From a virus (Duplodnaviria; Heunggongvirae; Uroviricota; Caudoviricetes), in IMG/VR virus record IMGVR_UViG_2627854066_000004, positions 1 to 36,127 of that record: a stretch of DNA of 36,127 nucleotides; one strand, 5' to 3'. Below, one piece after another: positions 1,024 through 36,127 of the stretch (positions are counted from its first letter, which is position 1; each line of letters begins with the position of its first letter). The translations under genes were made by a program, and so were the position numbers. Below the pieces are notes generated by a model, which saw nothing but the letters and a program-made list of their open reading frames with translations, had not been told where the DNA came from and searched no databases.

Positions 1024-1056
1024 TTCCAGTTTGTAAAACGTAAGAATAATAAAGGG

Positions 1057-1359
1057 TTAACCAATTTTCCTTTCGGATGGGGGTAAATCCGTTGGCTCTT
1101 GCCCATAGTGTGCGAGAGCCGGAGCTATCTGCCCGGATTCAGGCGCAATTTTCCCAGTCATAAACCACAAGGCATATTTTTCGAACCGCGGGCAATTTAA
1201 GATTTTCATCATTACATCCCCTTTGGGTATGGATTCGCCAGTCTCATAACGCCATAGCGCGTTATGCGGAATACCTATTAACTCAGCAGCCTCATTGCGA
1301 CTTGTAATGCGCTCACTTTCACGCATTAGTTTTAGTTTTTCACCAATCTCCAAAATCAT
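1057..1359 (-). CDS. C: immunity repressor, P2 C-like
   Basis: About 100 aa from the internal Met (MILEIGEKLKLMRESE...), which has a GGAGA RBS; the segment VMMKIL...KYALWFMTGKIAPESGQIAPALAH resembles P2 repressor C as I recall it. An alternative upstream start at 1386 has no good RBS. Confidence 0.75.
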   Translation of the reverse strand: MILEIGEKLKLMRESERITSRNEAAELIGIPHNALWRYETGESIPKGDVMMKILNCPRFEKYALWFMTGKIAPESGQIAPALAHYGQEPTDLPPSERKIG

Positions 1360-1453
1360 ATTGCATTCTCCAAATATGTAGTGCATTATGCAAACAATGA
1401 GTTGAACTATGGGGTAAATATCTCACCTATACCCCAAACAGGGAGATTATCAC
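1360..1453. promoter_or_regulatory. immunity switch region between C and cox (expected Pe/Pc promoters and operators)
   Basis: 94-bp AT-rich gap between divergently oriented C and cox starts; contains TGCATT direct repeats and an imperfect palindrome TATGGGGTA...TACCCCA. Promoter elements were not mapped. Confidence 0.4.
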
Positions 1454-1780
1454 ATGAATGAAGAACTATTGAGGGCATTGTTTAAGATCCCAGACCCCAT
1501 CACCGTCGATGAATTTGCCCGCCGCACGGGCAAGACCGAATCAGCCGTAAGAAAGTTGGTGGAACGTCGGCTCATCCCTCTGGCCACTGAGCGTGAAGTT
1601 TTAGGCGAGGAAGGAAGTTCACGCCGCCTTCTCATCCTATGGAACGAGTGGCTCGAAATGGTCTATGACGCAACGAAACAGCTTCCTCCTGAGCGTAAAG
1701 ATTGGCGCAACCACTGGCTTAATAAAGCCAAGAAGCTGGCGGAAGATTTGGGATTAGGCTTCCTTAATTTTGCTGCATGA
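1454..1780 (+). CDS. cox: Cox-like excisionase / transcriptional regulator
   Basis: 108 aa, first gene of the rightward early operon opposite the repressor; HTH-like segment FARRTGKTESAVRKLVERRLIP resembles P2 Cox. Confidence 0.65.
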   Translation: MNEELLRALFKIPDPITVDEFARRTGKTESAVRKLVERRLIPLATEREVLGEEGSSRRLLILWNEWLEMVYDATKQLPPERKDWRNHWLNKAKKLAEDLGLGFLNFAA

Positions 1781-1798
1781 GATGCAGGGAGTTTTGAT

Positions 1799-2140
1799 AT
1801 GAAACAGCAACGTAATTCACGCTTTCGTAATGGTGCTGAACGCCACGCTAACCGTTTCGCTACCAGTGCATCACGCAGCAACATCCGCTACAGCCTGAGT
1901 GATACACACGCAACGCCGGATGGCTACCCAGTAAAACAAATCGGCGAGCATGCCTGGCTGATTGAGAAAGCTGGAATCGTGGTTCACAAATGCCCACGCA
2001 ATCCGTTTACCGGAAACCGCATTTTTGCATTGAGCTGCGGCGACAATCAGTTCGGGCAGGATTTCACATTATACGAAGCACTACGCACGGTTGATCGTCT
2101 GCTTCGCGGGCAAAGTTTTATTAAACAGGCTGATTTATAA
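1799..2140 (+). CDS. hypothetical early protein
   Basis: 113-aa ORF with an AGGGAG RBS 7 nt upstream; position corresponds to the P2 early region. Confidence 0.5.
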   Translation: MKQQRNSRFRNGAERHANRFATSASRSNIRYSLSDTHATPDGYPVKQIGEHAWLIEKAGIVVHKCPRNPFTGNRIFALSCGDNQFGQDFTLYEALRTVDRLLRGQSFIKQADL

Positions 2141-2150
2141 CAGGTGCTTT

Positions 2151-2429
2151 ATGACCAAAGAGCATGCACAAGGTGTATTTATCCGTTTTATTGATTTTCG
2201 CGGTGAACTGTTATTACGCGCATCGGCTATTGATGCTGTAGTCCCGGCAGCAAAAGATGTGGCTACTTACCTTTATCTGAACGGCACGCGATTGTTTGTG
2301 GAACTTCCGTACCAGACCGTGCGCGAAATTATTAGCGAAGCTGAAAAAGCACGTCAGGTTAATGGCGATGAACCCTATATCGAAATTATCTGCATGGATT
2401 CAGAAGCTGAAATTCAAAAGGCAGATTAA
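2151..2429 (+). CDS. hypothetical early protein
   Basis: 92 aa from the ATG at 2151; the longer six-frame ORF starting at 2091 overlaps the preceding gene. Confidence 0.5.
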   Translation: MTKEHAQGVFIRFIDFRGELLLRASAIDAVVPAAKDVATYLYLNGTRLFVELPYQTVREIISEAEKARQVNGDEPYIEIICMDSEAEIQKAD

Positions 2430-2440
2430 AGGGCGTTGCG

Positions 2441-2683
2441 ATGGATAAAGAATATAAAACTCTCGTCAATAAAGCACTTGAGCGCTTTCATTTTCGCATA
2501 AGCGCATCAGGCACTCATGCTGAACTCGCAGCCCGAGAGTCATTGACCAGGGCCATCAAGAGTATATACGACACAGCTTTTTACATTGACGACCCGGACG
2601 CGCTCGACGAGCTTTCCATACTCGTCTGCGCCGCAGAAAACGGGGACCATATTGAGCCATATAAACTGGGGAATATTGCATGA
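2441..2683 (+). CDS. hypothetical early protein
   Basis: 80-aa ORF in the same operon orientation. Confidence 0.5.
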   Translation: MDKEYKTLVNKALERFHFRISASGTHAELAARESLTRAIKSIYDTAFYIDDPDALDELSILVCAAENGDHIEPYKLGNIA

Positions 2684-2793
2684 GTATATTTATCTCATGG
2701 CTTGTTCTGATTATTTCGGTGGCCTGCGCCATTGGGATTATGCGAATTATTCATTCAGTAAAAAAGATTGAACGCTTTTTCACTGGCGAATAA
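2680..2793 (+). CDS. small hydrophobic peptide (37 aa, one predicted TM helix)
   Basis: ATG at 2680 overlaps the upstream stop (ATGA) and has a GGGGA RBS; product MSIFISWLVLIISVACAIGIMRIIHSVKKIERFFTGE. Below the 60-aa cut-off of the ORF track. Confidence 0.35.
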   Translation: MSIFISWLVLIISVACAIGIMRIIHSVKKIERFFTGE

Positions 2794-2879
2794 CAGAGCA
2801 AATAAAACCACTGGTTAAATAAGAAAATGTAAAAACAATCCGCATTCGCGGAGGTATTCGCACACGCCAAGGAGGCGTA

Positions 2880-3083
2880 ATGGCAATTAAGCGATTTACC
2901 GTCGTTCGTTTCACTTCCAGAGGACGTGAATACGAAGTTGACGAACGGCTGATTAAAACGCTCGACCGTCACCGTTCGCAACCTGACGCGCATCACATTT
3001 ATCTCACCGACGACACTTACTTCTGCGCCACCAACGTGGTGCAGGTGAACCTTATCCGACAGGTACAGGAGTCACGCAGATGA
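2880..3083 (+). CDS. hypothetical early protein
   Basis: 67 aa with a strong AGGAGG RBS. Confidence 0.55.
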   Translation: MAIKRFTVVRFTSRGREYEVDERLIKTLDRHRSQPDAHHIYLTDDTYFCATNVVQVNLIRQVQESRR

Positions 3084-3325
3084 CCATTCTGGACTACATC
3101 ACAGCCAATCCGGGCTGTAGCGGTGGAGAAATCGCCGCAGCACTGAATACCCCAACTACAGCCATTAATGCGGAGTTACGCCGACTCTGGCGCAGCGGTT
3201 CAGTCGTAAGAAAAGAGCGCAAAACAGGTGGTCGGTTCTCTTACCAGGTAAACCCGATGCCGTTCGGGTGTGGTAACCCACTAACCCACATGTTTAACCA
3301 GCTACTGAAGGAAGCCAGAGCATGA
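3080..3325 (+). CDS. hypothetical protein, possible winged-helix DNA-binding
   Basis: 81 aa, ATGA overlap with the upstream gene; helix-turn-helix-like segment GEIAAALNTPTTAINAELRRL. Confidence 0.5.
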   Translation: MTILDYITANPGCSGGEIAAALNTPTTAINAELRRLWRSGSVVRKERKTGGRFSYQVNPMPFGCGNPLTHMFNQLLKEARA

Positions 3326-3621
3326 GCACCATCAACCACCAGGAATTACGCGAACTGGCGACTGACCTGCAACGAATGGCAACACATCAAAAATTACTGG
3401 CGTTTCGCGCAATGCTCTCACCATCTGCTGTGCTGGCACTGCTGGATGAGCTGGAGCACGCCAGAACTACGGCGCCTGCCATTCGCCTGACGCTCCATCA
3501 TGAAATCACTGATTTCTGCGCAACACTGGGGGCACCTGGTGAACCGGAAACACCGGAAGCAATACAGCGCGAGCTATTACAACGCATCGACAACGTTTTC
3601 GATTTTTTCCTTAACCAGTAA
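3322..3621 (+). CDS. hypothetical early protein
   Basis: 99 aa, ATGA coupling to the upstream gene. Confidence 0.5.
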   Translation: MSTINHQELRELATDLQRMATHQKLLAFRAMLSPSAVLALLDELEHARTTAPAIRLTLHHEITDFCATLGAPGEPETPEAIQRELLQRIDNVFDFFLNQ

Positions 3622-3635
3622 GGGAGCAAATCACA

Positions 3636-4187
3636 ATGAAACTCAAACCCATGGGCATCCCCGGTCAGGCACCAAGACACGTTAAACAATGGACGAAACA
3701 GGAAGATGCGTTGCTGATAAGCATGTACCCGAAACACAGCATCAGGGAAATGACATCCAGACTTAATCGCTCATTTCATGCAACGGGGCAGCGCCTTATC
3801 ACCTTGCGCAAGCGAGGGCTGATTGGGCGGAAACGCCAGCGGCTGGATGAAAAGGCAATAGCAGAAATAATCAGCAACCGCCACCGAAAAAGTAAGAGGG
3901 ATATGGCGCGGGAAATGAAATGTAGCAAATGCACCATACAAAAAATACTCCGCGATCGTGGTTACAGCGCAATGAAGTGTGGAGGCATACATCATGCTGC
4001 TAAATACGACGATCATATTGTTCATCTGGTAACTGAATTGCGTGATGGGCACGGCATGCCATTCAGGGAAATAAGCAGACATATACACAAAATCACAGGG
4101 ATACAGGTGGCATACAGCACAGTATGGTGGCTTTACAACCGCCGAACCGCCGCCGACGCCGTGCTGTACGAGCTATTACCAAACTGA
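3636..4187 (+). CDS. hypothetical protein with basic HTH-like regions
   Basis: 183 aa, AGGGAG RBS; followed by a terminator at 4308-4328. Confidence 0.55.
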   Translation: MKLKPMGIPGQAPRHVKQWTKQEDALLISMYPKHSIREMTSRLNRSFHATGQRLITLRKRGLIGRKRQRLDEKAIAEIISNRHRKSKRDMAREMKCSKCTIQKILRDRGYSAMKCGGIHHAAKYDDHIVHLVTELRDGHGMPFREISRHIHKITGIQVAYSTVWWLYNRRTAADAVLYELLPN

Positions 4188-4307
4188 GTAATCATCATGC
4201 ACACACAAAAAAACCGCTTGCCATGCCGCAATCAGTCAGGTTACATTTCTGCTGCACCTCATAAAACGGGTGCCGGGATTCTCAACCTGCTGACAAACGA
4301 AGCGCAC

Positions 4308-4328
4308 AACCGCGCCAGCGGTTTTTTT
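4308..4328 (+). terminator. rho-independent terminator
   Basis: AACCGC-GCCA-GCGGTT stem-loop followed by TTTTTTT. Confidence 0.55.
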
Positions 4329-4340
4329 GTGCGTACTGTA

Positions 4341-4448
4341 TTGCCACGTCTTTTTCGCACACGAATTATGGTGGGGCGTACGGGGCCGACTTCGGTCGGG
4401 CCGGTTTCTTCGTTTGCCGGTGTTGAGAACCCCGTACGTCTCGCCACC
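4341..4448 (+). promoter_or_regulatory. promoter-like element plus structured leader or small RNA upstream of the 4511 ORF
   Basis: TTGCCA-N17-AATTAT at 4341-4369, then a long hairpin at 4371-4447: CGTACGGGG (4377-4385) pairs with CCCCGTACG (4430-4438) and encloses a UUCG-capped stem CCGAC-TTCG-GTCGG (4386-4399). Confidence 0.3.
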
Positions 4449-4510
4449 CCGAGATTCTCAACTCTGGTTGGTGAGTATCCAAAAACTCACAAACGAAGAG
4501 GCCAAACACC

Positions 4511-4741
4511 ATGGCAAACCGCAAACAGCACCGCGCTATCGCGGAGCGTCGTCACATCCAGACTGAAATCAACCGCAGACTTTCCCGCGCATTCCGCGTC
4601 GCTAAAATCATGCACATCAATATGCTGCATGAGCGTAGCTGCGAACTTTCAAACCTCTATTCATCCGCTGTTTTCAGCTATCTGGCGGATGATCTGCGCG
4701 AGCTTCAGCAGCTCATCCAGCAGCAAAACAAACTCCATTAA
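4511..4741 (+). CDS. hypothetical basic protein
   Basis: 76 aa, AAGAGG RBS 9 nt upstream. Confidence 0.45.
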   Translation: MANRKQHRAIAERRHIQTEINRRLSRAFRVAKIMHINMLHERSCELSNLYSSAVFSYLADDLRELQQLIQQQNKLH

Positions 4742-4813: not shown

Positions 4814-5203
4814 ATGATTGACGCTCATGACTTCACAGGATGGGTGCGCACACAGGACACCCGTCTGGCTCCCGTTCTTCAGGGATTATTTGATCTTTAC
4901 ATCCGTGGTCGTGACAACAGAGCACGCACCACAAAACCGGAGAACGCGGACACCCTTTATTTCACAGTAGACGACTGCTACCGCGTGGACTTCACACCAC
5001 ACGGGCTGGCGTTGCACTGCCTGACACCACACGGCGAATCACTGCTGGCGTATTACGACTCCCCGGCCTCCGCATTTGCGGCAATGCTGGCGCATCGCAC
5101 TGCTGGCGGGTGTGCCTCGCTGAGTGAATACACCGCTGAATTTAACCGCCTTTCCGCCATCTTTTCGCAGGAGTGGCAGCGCGTGACGGGATACCAGCCA
5201 TGA
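4814..5203 (+). CDS. hypothetical protein, coupled to A
   Basis: 129 aa; its stop overlaps the gene A start (ATGA at 5200-5203). Confidence 0.55.
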   Translation: MIDAHDFTGWVRTQDTRLAPVLQGLFDLYIRGRDNRARTTKPENADTLYFTVDDCYRVDFTPHGLALHCLTPHGESLLAYYDSPASAFAAMLAHRTAGGCASLSEYTAEFNRLSAIFSQEWQRVTGYQP

Positions 5204-8052
5204 GTGAGTTTGCATGGAGCTGGAATGAGCCACGGCCAGCCATTGATCCGGCCAGATTTACGGAGCACAGGCAGGAAACTGAAACCGACCTGCAACGCGC
5301 CATCCGTTACTACCTTGAGGCAGACAAAAAGGCTCTGGAAGAACAGGAAGCGAAGGAGGAAGCCTTTTTCGCACAATCCACCGTGGGTAAAAAACTCATG
5401 GCATCCCTTGAGGAAGCCGGACAGCGTGAAAAGCTGGCACAAAGCATCATCAGCAAGCGTCAGGCAACAGAACAAGACCCGGTGGCCCGTGCTTTTGCCA
5501 CACTGAAGGTGCTTCCCGTTTATCTGCGTGAACCTCTGAGCCGCCACCTCTCTTTCCTGCGCAAAAAACAGGAAGCCGATCGTCAGAAAGGCAAAAAGAG
5601 CTGGCAGGCGGAACGCTACGCGCGCGGAACCCTGCGCAAAATATTCGAACGTCTGGACCGCACCGACAGCCGCTGGCTGACACCGGGTTATCGCTCCATT
5701 GCCGGACGCGAACGCCTGGACGATTTGCTTTACCTGCCGCAGCTCAACAAACACCAGATACAGACGCTGGCCACCATGACGGCGGCGATGTTCAGCAGCA
5801 CCTTCGAAAAGCTCTGCGATGGCTTTGGTGCGACTGATGGCGAGCTGACCATGGATGTAACGCTGAAGGCGTATCAGATGCTGGCCCGCATGGCGTTACA
5901 CCTGCACGCCATGCCTCCGCATTATGACGCACTGACAACAGACAAAGACCGGAGGAACGAACCGGACACGGAGCTGCTGCCGGGCGCAATCCTTCGCCTG
6001 ACCTGTGCAGAATGGTGGAAACGCAAACTGTGGCTGTTACGTTGCGAGTGGAGAGAAGAACAACTCCGCGCCGCCTGTCTGGTTTCCAGAAAAACATCGC
6101 CCTATCTGAGCCAGGACGCGTTAAGCGAGTTTCGCGCACAGCGCGAGAAAACACGCGATTTCCTGAAAAGTTTCATGCTGGAAAATGAAGACGGGTTCAC
6201 GATTGATCTCGAGACGGTGTATTACGCGGGAGTAAGTAACCCGGTTCACCGTAAGGCAGAAATGATGGCCACCATGAAGGGGCTGGAACTTCTGGCCGAA
6301 GCCCGTGGCGACAAAGCGGTGTTTCTGACTGTCACCTGCCCGTCAAAATACCACGCCACAACAGAGAACGGTCATCCGAATCCCAAATGGAACGGGGCCA
6401 CCATGCGCGACTCCAGCGATTATCTGGTTAACACGTTTTTTGCGGCGGTCCGCAAAAAACTGAACCGCGACGGCCTGCGCTGGTATGGCATCCGCACGGT
6501 GGAGCCTCACCATGACGGCACCGTGCACTGGCATATGATGGTCTTTGCTCATCCGGAAGAAATCGACAGCATCGTGGCCATCACCCGCGATATTGCCATT
6601 CAGGAAGACCGCCACGAGCTGGGCAATGATATTACTCCGCGCTTTAAGGTGGAGTATGTCGACGGCTCCAAAGGCACGCCAACCAGCTACATCGCCACCT
6701 ACATCGGAAAAAATCTGGACAGCCGCGCCGTGGATGGAATCGACCCGAAAACGGGCAAACCACGCGTTGACCACGAAACCGGAAAATCAATGGCCGAGAG
6801 CGTGGAGCGCGCCATCGGCTGGGCGCGCCTTCACCGCGTCCGCCAGTTCCAGTTCTTTGGCATCCCCTCCCGTCAGGTGTGGCGTGAACTGCGCCGCCTC
6901 GCCAGCCAGATGGCACGCAACCCGGAAGGCCCGCAACGGCTGAAGGATGACGCAATGGATGCGGTTCTTGCTGCCGCTGATGCCGGGTGTTTTGCCTCCT
7001 ACATTGAAAAACAGGGTGGCGTACTTGTTCCACGCAAGGACTACCTGATTCGCACCGCCTACGACCTCGCAGATGAGCTGAACGATTACGGCGAGCAGGG
7101 CGTACAGATTTACGGGATCTGGTCACCACTCATCGGGGAATCCTCCCGTGTGTGCACGCATCCGGATAACTGGAAGCTGGTAAGACGCAAACCGGAAGCG
7201 GAAGACAGCGCCCGCGAAAATGGTTTTGACCTTCAGGGCGGCCCTGCCGCCCCTTGGACTCGTGGCAATAACTGTCCCCGTGTACAGGAAACGGACAACA
7301 ACGGGACAGAACAGCCGGAAGAACGGCCAGCACCGTGGCCGCAGATCCCTGACGGTGTTGAAGTGAACGAATGGCTGCACTCACTGAAACGGCACGAACG
7401 CCGGGCGCTGATGCGTTCGCTGCGTGACAAACAGGCAAAAAACAACAGTGATGAAATGCAGAGCTGGACACAGAGCCGCAAACAGCAGCGGCCTTTGCCT
7501 GATAACCACGAATTACTCGCTAAAGAATGGCGGGAGTCTGCTGAATCCCTTGGCCTGCATATCGGTGAACAACAGATGCAGCACCTGTTACGGGGCGGCA
7601 GTCTGTACGTTGACGGCAGCATCATTGCACCGCAGGGATTTGAAATTGTACGCAAACCGGATACCCGCCCGGACAGCCGAATCACGCAGCTCTGGCAGCG
7701 CCTGAGCCGTAATCACGATGTAAGCAGCACGGAGATCCGCCATAACCCGGTCGCCAGCTATCTGGCACAGCTGGGGGCATCAGACCCTGAAGCCGCCGCA
7801 CGCCTGGCATCCACACTTCAGCAGGACCAGAACACCATGAAAACACCCGTTACCGTGCTTTCTGACATGCTGCGCGCCATCCGCGACGCAGAGCACGCAC
7901 AGAGAATCAGTGAAACCACTGAACGCGCCCGCCGCAAAGCAGACCTGCTGCGGGGTGGCCTGACCAGTGGAAACAAAAAACAGACAGAAACGGGATTCAC
8001 AAATCCCATAAATGAGCAAAAAAACGCGCCGCGATATATGAAGCGCGCATAA
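5200..8052 (+). CDS. A: rolling-circle replication initiator, P2 gpA family
   Basis: Contains an HUH-type motif GTVHWHMMVF and paired tyrosines YIATYIGK as in the P2 A family. Start set at ATG 5200; the six-frame ORF begins at 5173. Confidence 0.85.
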   Translation: MSEFAWSWNEPRPAIDPARFTEHRQETETDLQRAIRYYLEADKKALEEQEAKEEAFFAQSTVGKKLMASLEEAGQREKLAQSIISKRQATEQDPVARAFATLKVLPVYLREPLSRHLSFLRKKQEADRQKGKKSWQAERYARGTLRKIFERLDRTDSRWLTPGYRSIAGRERLDDLLYLPQLNKHQIQTLATMTAAMFSSTFEKLCDGFGATDGELTMDVTLKAYQMLARMALHLHAMPPHYDALTTDKDRRNEPDTELLPGAILRLTCAEWWKRKLWLLRCEWREEQLRAACLVSRKTSPYLSQDALSEFRAQREKTRDFLKSFMLENEDGFTIDLETVYYAGVSNPVHRKAEMMATMKGLELLAEARGDKAVFLTVTCPSKYHATTENGHPNPKWNGATMRDSSDYLVNTFFAAVRKKLNRDGLRWYGIRTVEPHHDGTVHWHMMVFAHPEEIDSIVAITRDIAIQEDRHELGNDITPRFKVEYVDGSKGTPTSYIATYIGKNLDSRAVDGIDPKTGKPRVDHETGKSMAESVERAIGWARLHRVRQFQFFGIPSRQVWRELRRLASQMARNPEGPQRLKDDAMDAVLAAADAGCFASYIEKQGGVLVPRKDYLIRTAYDLADELNDYGEQGVQIYGIWSPLIGESSRVCTHPDNWKLVRRKPEAEDSARENGFDLQGGPAAPWTRGNNCPRVQETDNNGTEQPEERPAPWPQIPDGVEVNEWLHSLKRHERRALMRSLRDKQAKNNSDEMQSWTQSRKQQRPLPDNHELLAKEWRESAESLGLHIGEQQMQHLLRGGSLYVDGSIIAPQGFEIVRKPDTRPDSRITQLWQRLSRNHDVSSTEIRHNPVASYLAQLGASDPEAAARLASTLQQDQNTMKTPVTVLSDMLRAIRDAEHAQRISETTERARRKADLLRGGLTSGNKKQTETGFTNPINEQKNAPRYMKRA

Positions 8053-8117: not shown

Positions 8118-9077
8118 ATGAAAATTTGTATCGACGACGGCTCCACCAACATCAAGCTGGCATGGACTGAGAACGGCGAACGCCGCAACGCCATCAGCCC
8201 GAACAGCTTCAAGTCGGAATGGTCTGCGCCGTTCGGTGGCTCGCAGCCTGCGAACTACATGCTTGATGGCGTGCGCTATGGTTTTGATCCGGTCAGCGAT
8301 CGCTTTGTCCAGACGACCGACACGCAATACCAGTACAGCGATGTGAATGTCATTGCCATTCATCACGCGCTGGTCAAATCAGGCATCACGCCACAGGAGG
8401 TGGATGTGGTTGTCACCCTGCCACTGAGCGAGTATTTCGACACAAACGCACAGCCGGACATGGCCAACATCAACCGCAAAAAAGCGAACGTTATGCGCCC
8501 GGTGGAGTACCAGAACGGCGAAGCATTCACTATCCGTAACGTGCGGGTTATGCCTGAATCCATTCCGGCTGGCTTTAAGGCACTGGCTGACATGAGTCCG
8601 TTTGAATCCCTGCTGATTGTAGATTTGGGCGGAACCACGCTGGATGTGGCAAAGGTTCAGGGGCAACTGGCAGGTATCAGCCAGGTGTTTTGCGATCCAC
8701 ACGTAGGCGTTTCTCTGATGGCCGATGCCGTACTGTCGGTGATGGCCACTAACGGTATGCGCACCAGTCACCACATCGCCAATACCATTATCGAACATCG
8801 CCATAATGAAGCCTGGCTGCGCCAGCACATCCACAATGACGCGCATTACGCCAGCCTGATGGAGGTTATTCGTGAAAAGGAAGAAACACTGAAACAACGC
8901 GTGATCCGCGCGCTGGCGGGTTTTTCGGGTTACGGGCGGGTGATGGTTGTCGGTGGAGGGGCGGAGATTGTGGCACCCGCTATCCGCGAAGCCTGCGGAG
9001 TTAATGCGACTTTCATCGCGGACGGGGTGCCACAGTTTGCTCTGGTTAATGGGCTGTACGCAATGGACAAGGAGTAA
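8118..9077 (+). CDS. actin-like segregation ATPase, StbA/ParM family
   Basis: 319 aa; N-terminus MKICIDDGSTNIKLAW and the LIVDLGGTTLDVA phosphate-binding motif match the StbA/ParM family of plasmid R100/R1. Confidence 0.8.
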   Translation: MKICIDDGSTNIKLAWTENGERRNAISPNSFKSEWSAPFGGSQPANYMLDGVRYGFDPVSDRFVQTTDTQYQYSDVNVIAIHHALVKSGITPQEVDVVVTLPLSEYFDTNAQPDMANINRKKANVMRPVEYQNGEAFTIRNVRVMPESIPAGFKALADMSPFESLLIVDLGGTTLDVAKVQGQLAGISQVFCDPHVGVSLMADAVLSVMATNGMRTSHHIANTIIEHRHNEAWLRQHIHNDAHYASLMEVIREKEETLKQRVIRALAGFSGYGRVMVVGGGAEIVAPAIREACGVNATFIADGVPQFALVNGLYAMDKE

Positions 9078-9456: not shown

Positions 9457-9792
9457 ATGCAACACATTGACAGAGAAAAAGAGCAGCGACTGATTGAGCG
9501 AATGGAAGCGCTGGCGAAAGAAGAAAATGTCAACATCCAAAAAATAGCTGAATGTGGCCAGATAGTTCTTCGTCGTGAAAAAGACATCAAGCAACTGATG
9601 TCTGGCGAAATCAGCAAAACATGGACTTCAGGCAAGAAGACGATTTATTGCAGCTTCTGCAATAAATCCCAGCACGAAGTCATAAAGGTGATTGCCGGAC
9701 CGTCTGTTTACATCTGCAATGAGTGCGTGGATTTGTGCAATGAAATTATCAGAGGAGAAGTGACAGACCATGAAGAAAAAACGCATGAATGA
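9457..9792 (+). CDS. small protein with C-terminal ClpX-type zinc-binding domain
   Basis: 111 aa; the C-terminal segment [38 protein letters not shown] is almost identical in pattern to the N-terminal C4 zinc-binding domain of ClpX (recalled as [38 protein letters not shown]). The N-terminal 60 aa are unrelated. Confidence 0.7.
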
Positions 9793-34689: not shown

Positions 34690-34986
34690 ATGAGTGAAAT
34701 GGTATTTTGTCGCGGATGCGGCAAGGAAATACATAAAGATGCCACATCCTGCCCCAATTGTGGAGCACCTCAAAGAACAGCAAGTTCAAAAAGCAGAATG
34801 ACAGCCGCACTACTGGCTTTCTTTTTAGGTGGTCTTGGTGCACACAAATTTTATTTAGGTAAAGTGGGGCAAGGATTCCTTTACCTTATTTTTTGCTGGA
34901 CATTCATTCCGGCAATCGTGGCATTTATTGAGTTTTTTATCTATCTATGCACCTCTGATGAAGACTTTGCCCGCAAATATGGCTAA
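34690..34986 (+). CDS. zinc-ribbon plus TM2-domain membrane protein
   Basis: 98 aa; CRGCG...CPNCG zinc ribbon followed by two hydrophobic helices (AALLAFFLGGLGAHKFYLG...). Confidence 0.6.
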   Translation: MSEMVFCRGCGKEIHKDATSCPNCGAPQRTASSKSRMTAALLAFFLGGLGAHKFYLGKVGQGFLYLIFCWTFIPAIVAFIEFFIYLCTSDEDFARKYG

Positions 34987-35178: not shown

Positions 35179-35376
35179 ATGACGCAAAATGTACGATGCA
35201 AAAATTGCAACAAACTACTTGCCCGCGCCTCATTTCACTACATTGAAATAAAATGTCCGCGCTGCAAAACACTTAACCAGATAACGAGAGCCATCGAGCA
35301 CCCCACACACATGAGGAGTTATGACCGTGGGGATCGCAATCCAGCACCAACCAGCACATACACCGGAACACACTAA
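35179..35376 (+). CDS. com: Com-like zinc-finger protein (phage Mu Com family translational regulator)
   Basis: 65 aa; RCKNCNKLL...IEIKCPRCK matches the Mu Com zinc finger nearly residue for residue as recalled; AGAGG RBS; the 3' end overlaps the downstream methyltransferase start. Confidence 0.7.
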   Translation: MTQNVRCKNCNKLLARASFHYIEIKCPRCKTLNQITRAIEHPTHMRSYDRGDRNPAPTSTYTGTH

Positions 35377-36127
35377 GGTTTATCAGACTGACAATGCCAC
35401 GCTCTGTCGTGGGAATGCGCTGGAAATATTGCCGCTGATTGAGCCAGAAAGCATTGATGCCTTAATCACTGACCCGCCTTACAGTTCGGGTGCGACACAC
35501 AAGGCCGGACGCACCAACCAAGGCAGCCATGCAAAATATCTGAACGGCGAGAACCTTCACCGCTTTGATGGGTTCGCGGGTGAAAACATGGACGCCCGTT
35601 CGTGGGCTTACTGGACACAATTATGGATGGCACAGGCACACCGCGCAGTCAGGCCGGGCGGTTATGCCCTGGTATTTACTGACTGGCGACAACTACCAGC
35701 TTTAACCGATGCGTTTCAGGCCAGCGGCTTTACATGGCGCGGCATCATTGCGTGGAACAAGGGGAGGGGGTCACGAACACCCCATACGGGGTATTTCAGG
35801 CATCAGTGCGAATACATCGTCTGGGGCAGCAAAGGCCATTTAGATAAATCGCCTTCGGGGCCGTTCGACGGCTGCATGACGTACCCGGTTATCCCGTCAA
35901 AGAAAATGCACCCGACCGGAAAACCAGAAGAACTAATGGCGGAACTGGTCAGGACTGTGAATAGTGGCGGAACAGTCCTTGATCCTTTTATGGGGTCAGG
36001 GACAACGGGTGTGGCTGCACTGAAAGCAGGGCGAAAATTTATTGGTATAGAAACCAGTGATCATTATTTTGAGGTAGCAGCGCAGCGGCTTCGGGGGACT
36101 ATTACCACAACCATTTCGGCTACATAA
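35321..36127 (+). CDS. DNA methyltransferase, beta-class amino-MTase (N6-adenine or N4-cytosine)
   Basis: 268 aa; catalytic motif ITDPPYS near the N-terminus and the AdoMet-binding motif DPFMGSGTTGVAA near the C-terminus (motif IV before motif I). Stop codon is the last three bases of the window. Confidence 0.85.
   Translation: MTVGIAIQHQPAHTPEHTKVYQTDNATLCRGNALEILPLIEPESIDALITDPPYSSGATHKAGRTNQGSHAKYLNGENLHRFDGFAGENMDARSWAYWTQLWMAQAHRAVRPGGYALVFTDWRQLPALTDAFQASGFTWRGIIAWNKGRGSRTPHTGYFRHQCEYIVWGSKGHLDKSPSGPFDGCMTYPVIPSKKMHPTGKPEELMAELVRTVNSGGTVLDPFMGSGTTGVAALKAGRKFIGIETSDHYFEVAAQRLRGTITTTISAT

Follow-up and report, generated by a model that had tools for sequence, protein, structure and literature searches.

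A conserved 37-residue predicted membrane peptide encoded in the early region of a P88-type prophage of the P2 family

In phage 186, fil and dhr are small overlapping cistrons positioned immediately behind the switch genes in the early operon and followed by a hairpin (tR1), an arrangement shared by the peptide gene described here. The fil gene encodes a cell division inhibitor and dhr an inhibitor of host replication, and both are non-essential take-over genes. The closest entries by sequence are the P88 product AIZ95115.1 and the RefSeq proteins WP_000021656.1 and WP_000021655.1, which represent the same gene, located at the same position after a DUF4754 gene and with the same ATGA overlap, and whose records carry no function. 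The first-pass annotation of this DNA had called the peptide gene unannotated, which is incorrect, as RefSeq lists its product as 'hypothetical protein' in strain EC556 (WP_000021656.1) and in an O157:H7 genome (WP_000021655.1), while the GenBank record of P88 names it 'membrane protein' and UniRef names include 'Prophage membrane protein'. In some phage records, for example NC_049344 and NC_049341, the gene is uncalled. The peptide family is already present in databases, uncharacterised and without a curated family model, and its kind, a small phage membrane peptide in an early region, is already well known.

The window, meaning the whole stretch of 36,127 nucleotides that was analysed, corresponds to a complete P2-family prophage of the P88 type, with P88 (Peduoviridae, Xuanwuvirus) as the closest named phage, and the region is 100% identical to E. 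coli EC556, where the prophage adjoins pheA/pheL. Its first 8 kb contain the integrase and C-type repressor genes on the minus strand, followed by cox, a DUF4761 gene, a 92-aa gene, the DUF4754 gene, the 37-aa gene, a 67-aa gene, a MarR-like winged-helix gene, Ead/Ea22, an HTH protein, a gene labelled 'derepression protein' and finally the gpA replication endonuclease (Table 1). This order of int, C, cox, ..., A matches that of P2 and 186, and by analogy with these phages the peptide gene can be assigned to the rightward early lytic operon. Elsewhere in the prophage, two RNA families score above the Rfam gathering threshold, namely the isrK Hfq-binding RNA (4254-4328, plus strand, 62 bits) and the C4 antisense RNA (4364-4451, plus strand, 79 bits), both immediately preceding the 'derepression protein' gene (4511-4741), and this region looks like a P1/P7-style C4-controlled antirepressor module in a P2-like prophage. 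Right after gene A lies a full-length ParM/StbA actin-like segregation ATPase (8118-9077, plus strand, E 2e-82), which is an unusual cargo for an integrating P2-like prophage, and downstream of it a ClpX-type C4 zinc-finger protein (9457-9792, plus strand). Past the tail gene D are encoded a TM2-domain protein with a zinc ribbon (34690-34986, plus strand) and a type II-like DNA methyltransferase (35321-36127, plus strand) that is cut by the end of the window.

Table 1. Coordinates of the peptide gene, its signals and the neighbouring genes that frame it, numbered by position in the window
Feature	Position	Strand	Details
cox-like gene, first of the early operon	1454..1780	+	Pfam Phage_Cox; RefSeq 'Cox family DNA-binding protein'
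DUF4754 gene, 80 aa	2441..2683	+	Pfam PF15946, E 5e-54; PHROG 2549 (unknown function)
Shine-Dalgarno-like GGGGA	2668..2672	+	7 nt 5' of the ATG, within the last DUF4754 codons
Small membrane peptide gene	2680..2793	+	37 codons and stop; ATG at 2680, TAA at 2791-2793
ATGA start/stop overlap, 4 nt	2680..2683	+	Signature of translational coupling
Predicted transmembrane helix IFISWLVLIISVACAIGIM, codons 3-21	2686..2742	+	Hydropathy; AlphaFold2 helix pLDDT 93-96
Predicted cytoplasmic tail RIIHSVKKIERFFTGE, codons 22-37	2743..2790	+	Amphipathic, net +2
5-bp hairpin TCCGC-ATTC-GCGGA	2839..2852		45 nt past the peptide stop; an A-run precedes (2829-2852 overall)
Replication gene A (P2 gpA-type), last of the early operon	5173..8052	+	RefSeq 'replication endonuclease'

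The ORF specifies a product of 37 aa, MSIFISWLVLIISVACAIGIMRIIHSVKKIERFFTGE. Its size alone is weak evidence for a gene, with 87 ORFs of at least 25 aa present in the first 6 kb, and the frame is regarded as more than a chance occurrence because of its conservation. The start codon overlaps the TGA (2681-2683) that terminates the DUF4754 gene, and this overlap and the GGGGA motif are present as the initial description had them, in support of a peptide gene coupled to an early gene of a temperate phage. From 53 loci, 36 distinct DNA versions with 83-100% identity were obtained, and all 36 keep the ATGA overlap (one of them with a GTG start). At the Shine-Dalgarno position of the close relatives a purine-rich motif (GGGA or GGAG) persists, even where the DUF4754 residues change. 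The complete 37-codon frame is intact in 33 of the 36 versions; the exceptions are two versions that stop at codon 31 and a frameshifted one from phage 503458, in which the DUF4754 gene is frameshifted as well. Nucleotide diversity at the three codon positions amounts to 0.050, 0.034 and 0.124, respectively, with the peak at the third position. In the peptide frame dN/dS is 0.24 (Nei-Gojobori; bootstrap CI 0.11-0.46) with zero in-frame stops, as compared to values of 0.9-1.8 and 63-66 stops each in three other frames, two of them shifted sense frames and one antisense. The neighbouring DUF4754 gene has a dN/dS of 0.22, and the DNA diversity of the peptide region (pi ~0.04-0.11) lies below that of the flanks (0.14-0.23).

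Conservation of the frame extends to relatives that are beyond the reach of blastn. When 1.84 billion representative proteins were scanned exhaustively with a HMMER profile, 18 matches were obtained, all of them members of the peptide family or fragments, with no remote relatives and no host mimicry. Three of these matches are 54-68% identical 41-aa classes, two of which were traced to contigs (L055-L059) of more distant P2-like prophages, where the gene occupies the same position and PF05840 (Phage_GPA) is matched on the orthologous gpA. There, an 80-aa gene (3762-4004) overlaps the peptide gene (4001-4126) by the same 4 nt (ATGA), and the Shine-Dalgarno-like motifs in L055 and L059 are GAGGAG and AAGGGGA, despite different DUF4754 residues. 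The peptide DNA of L055 and L059 is only 60-63% identical to that of the window, blastn gives no alignment and synonymous sites are saturated (pS 0.73-0.77 with pN 0.26-0.29), with the encoded peptides sharing 54-57% amino-acid identity with the window peptide, as compared to 25-38% for the DUF4754 proteins and ~40% for gpA. The deep 41-aa classes also retain the pattern ...K.IE.(F/L)FTG(E/D), to which a basic KRHK or ERRK end is added. The proposal of a real coding gene was borne out, with an intact frame in nearly all close versions and in the deep orthologues, a low dN/dS, a third-position diversity peak and translation signals that persist as far as L055 and L059, and it is very probable that this is a genuine membrane-peptide gene, under selection and belonging to the early operon.

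The stem of the hairpin located 3' of the stop codon is kept in L055 and L059, and two independent compensatory pair changes (TCTGC/GCAGA and TCCGT/ACGGA) were found at other loci. When read as an intrinsic terminator, this hairpin is terminator-like on the minus strand, and no annotated minus-strand gene is present to the right of it within the window. The conserved module ends at this hairpin, and the variable-insert junction of the early operon is located just 3' of it.

The product has a GRAVY of 1.25, and its most hydrophobic 19-residue window (residues 3-21) averages 2.68 on the Kyte-Doolittle scale, with a Hessa sum (position-independent) of -2.9 kcal/mol. The N-terminus is uncharged, with no K/R in residues 1-7, while residues 22-37 contain four K/R, two E and one H. 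This tail has a hydrophobic moment of 1.64, as compared to 0.19 for the transmembrane segment. AlphaFold2, supplied with a 35-sequence alignment, models the peptide as one helix spanning residues 2-34 (pLDDT 87). The original suggestion of a single-pass membrane peptide with a basic tail agrees with the hydropathy, with the net positive charge of residues 22-37 and with this predicted helix. Across the family, with the 54-68% identical members included in the alignment, S6, W7 and L10 are invariant, A17, G19, M21 and K28 are at least 90% conserved and I23, I24 and I30 are nearly invariant, with K28, I30, E31 and F34 as the conserved residues of the tail. This pattern of conservation indicates that specific residues matter, beyond bulk hydrophobicity. 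A bias of conservation towards one face of the helix stayed below significance (p 0.06-0.11). The extreme end of the tail appears dispensable, since 30-aa truncated forms and a common 45-aa variant, in which a frameshift swaps out the last four to five residues, are in circulation.

Searches for a known identity gave nothing credible in Pfam, PHROGs, NCBIfam or PADLOC (the last at E <= 0.1), and the family profile matched no sequence in the PDB. Text searches of the literature turned up no publication that mentions the peptide sequence or DUF4754, and the peptide is absent from the Sakai Ribo-seq and the Enterobacteriaceae smORF supplements. The roles offered in the initial description, namely toxin, superinfection-exclusion factor or modulator of host membrane proteins, are generic ones, and none of the matches in the libraries or the literature bears on them. 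By full-length similarity and by the position of its gene, which follows a DUF4754-type gene and overlaps it by 4 nt in the cox-to-A operon, the product belongs to the P88-type 37/41-aa 'membrane protein' family, and several other identities were considered and rejected. A relationship to TatA/TatE (PF02416, NF003393) was suggested by one divergent member only, with an NCBIfam score of 16.9 bits against a cut-off of 104, while PF02416 is absent from the Pfam results of 20 members at E <= 10 and hhalign gives a probability of 4.3%. The segment 'SVAC' (residues 13-16) resembles a lipobox, but family members have F, M, I, Y or S in place of Cys16, V, L or F is frequent at position -1 and the basic n-region of a lipoprotein is missing. 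Homology to Fil of phage 186 was also dismissed, with no BLASTP alignment and a 10-residue match (IMRIIHSVKK / IIRIVHFVIK) at chance level, whose score is reached by 4-5% of shuffles (p ~0.04-0.05) and is weaker in other family members. A type I toxin locus was rejected for a coupled cistron that is not a separate unit and for which simple scans detected no antisense promoter or sRNA, a holin was rejected for a gene located between cox and A in the early operon and outside the lysis cassette, and a known anti-phage defence protein was rejected with no PADLOC match at E <= 0.1.

The family is widespread. The 801-nt region around the peptide gene occurs in 1367 of 5426 complete E. coli genomes, about a quarter, the exact peptide sequence is present on at least 1000 contigs of the sequence collection and 83 database clusters match it at E <= 1 in a search of 5.8 billion proteins. 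The peptide is 100% identical to the products of P88 and of the Citrobacter phage Shae_phiSM, and other annotated P88-type relatives are 84-97% identical. Among the species-representative genomes, the sole match was a 226-kb contig labelled 'Vagococcus sp. WN89Y' (NZ_JBQPOM010000071.1, locus L054) with a 100% identical peptide gene, which probably reflects contamination by E. coli or mislabelling of the assembly. As this sole locus is suspect, the host range was taken from protein records, which include E. albertii, Shigella flexneri, Salmonella enterica and a Citrobacter rodentium phage besides E. coli.

In the reading that we prefer, the peptide is a stand-alone modulator, made early in lytic growth, that acts on a membrane protein. 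The gene would be transcribed within the rightward early operon from cox to A, which, judging from P2 and 186, would be silenced by the C repressor in the lysogen and switched on by infection or induction. Ribosomes that finish the DUF4754 gene would restart at the overlapping AUGA, aided by the GGGGA Shine-Dalgarno motif, and the 37-aa product would insert in the inner membrane as a single helix, residues ~3-21. The positive-inside rule predicts a periplasmic location for the uncharged N-terminus and a cytoplasmic one for the tail (R22 ... K28 K29 ... R32). During lytic growth the peptide may then contact a membrane protein helix-to-helix and in this way modulate an inner-membrane machine of the host, a form of take-over also exerted by early phage genes whose products block division or transport, with gross membrane damage as the less likely outcome. 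This full reading, with the mode of action included, is put forward tentatively and at somewhat below even probability. A more specific version, according to which the peptide, alone or docked to the DUF4754 protein, would be a dedicated inhibitor of one conserved E. coli inner-membrane machine, is possible but rather doubtful. Such a machine could be, for example, the divisome, a membrane protease or a transporter that serves phage DNA entry. If this version were true, the peptide would represent a new family of microproteins that act in host take-over or exclusion, one carried by about a quarter of sequenced E. coli genomes and predating the split of phage lineages whose replication proteins are ~40% identical.

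The main rival to the preferred stand-alone modulator assigns the activity to the pair of coupled genes. The DUF4754 protein is modelled by AlphaFold2 as a three-helix bundle (pLDDT 90), for which a Foldseek search of the PDB found nothing at E <= 0.001 and only generic helical bundles at E > 1. Its gene in the P88 record (L003, KP063541.1, 2692-2934) is labelled 'DNA modification methyltransferase', a label that looks wrong for a modelled three-helix bundle with no methyltransferase domain. The DUF4754 and peptide genes always co-occur in the loci examined, and translational coupling is typical of subunits produced in a fixed ratio. The peptide could accordingly be pictured as a membrane anchor, with the three-helix bundle tethered via the cytoplasmic tail and the pair acting jointly. 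Strict co-occurrence with the 4-nt overlap in every locus, the deepest relatives included, the conserved tail motif K..IE..FTG(E/D) and the small helical-bundle model of the partner, which does not look catalytic, are all in line with such an anchor. However, at one locus (L052, 3001-3424) identity falls to 44% in the middle of DUF4754 but amounts to 87% in the DNA on either side, the peptide gene included, and a divergent DUF4754 is paired there with a near-identical peptide. This speaks against tight co-adaptation, as do the peptides P0067 and P0077, in which a window-type helix is joined to the tail of a 41-aa class. An anchor role is judged unlikely, if still worth weighing. On their own, these mosaics suggest recombination break-points within and between the two small genes.

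A membrane-damaging toxin, of a type I toxin-like or holin-like kind that would oligomerise and depolarise the inner membrane, is improbable. In size, short transmembrane helix, charged tail and high GRAVY (1.25) the peptide does resemble toxins of the TisB, Ldr, Hok and Fst type, but it is encoded by a coupled cistron inside a long early operon and outside the lysis cassette, with no overlapping antisense promoter or known sRNA. A simple scan found no minus-strand promoter-like sites near the ORF, the only minus-strand site being 2357-2328, and no Rfam sRNA was found at 2400-3000. Toxin matches were likewise missing from PADLOC, Pfam and NCBIfam, specific polar or small residues (S6, W7, A17, G19) are conserved rather than hydrophobicity alone, and an early depolarisation would be harmful to a phage that has yet to replicate.

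Decidedly improbable is also a superinfection-exclusion factor that would block the entry of incoming phage DNA in the lysogen or in early infection. Presence of the module in ~25% of complete E. coli genomes would fit such a role, and small inner-membrane phage proteins of this kind exist, such as T4 Imm and HK97 gp15, with DicB acting on ManYZ. However, the gene is located within a repressed early lytic operon, PADLOC gives no matches and the lysogenic-conversion genes of P2-type phages are located elsewhere. No own promoter was found for the gene, with no sigma-70-like promoter on the plus strand in a simple scan of 1050-4218, in which the early promoter itself was also not located. The position between cox and A, together with this absence of an own promoter, argues against expression in the lysogen, and hence against classical prophage exclusion. 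Because of the operon position and the lack of own signals, both a depolarising toxin and an exclusion factor expressed in the lysogen are less likely than the preferred modulator of a membrane protein. A regulatory DNA or RNA site, or a spacer ORF against Rho polarity, in place of a functional protein is highly improbable and such a non-coding explanation is essentially excluded, as the reduced DNA diversity relative to the flanks and the conserved hairpin that follows are outweighed by codon periodicity and a dN/dS of 0.24 that, among the frames computed, appear only in that of the peptide, and by a protein identity of 54-57% that is maintained despite saturated synonymous sites and no blastn alignment.

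Small membrane proteins are under-studied, and the peptide module is very common and under clear purifying selection. If a host membrane machine is targeted, the peptide would provide a natural probe of that machine and new early biology of the P2 family; otherwise, it would be one more hypothetical prophage microprotein, and the evidence points to no new principle. The gene as such is a sound, common microprotein gene with nothing anomalous. Among E. coli proteins of 30-50 aa, AcrZ, MgtS, MgrB, CydX and KdpF have one transmembrane helix and bind a larger membrane protein helix-to-helix; unlike the phage peptide, these regulators are chromosomal, and no similarity of the peptide to them was found among 5.8 billion and 1.84 billion proteins. 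Type I toxins such as TisB, Hok, Ldr and Fst are comparable in length and likewise combine one hydrophobic helix with a charged C-terminal tail, but are accompanied by an antisense RNA and form a separate transcription unit, whereas the peptide gene is coupled within an operon. Small single-pass membrane inhibitors of division are represented by gp56, the product of an early gene of the B. subtilis phage SPO1, and by the 29-aa SidA of Caulobacter. Both are, as is predicted for the peptide, tiny bitopic inner-membrane proteins, and they bind a membrane machine, the mechanism proposed for the peptide, although they differ from it in host and target and share no homology with it. Fil and Dhr of 186 have no sequence relationship to the peptide and neither sequence shows a comparable N-terminal transmembrane helix; by analogy of gene position and arrangement, the peptide may nevertheless belong to the same functional class as these two early take-over proteins.
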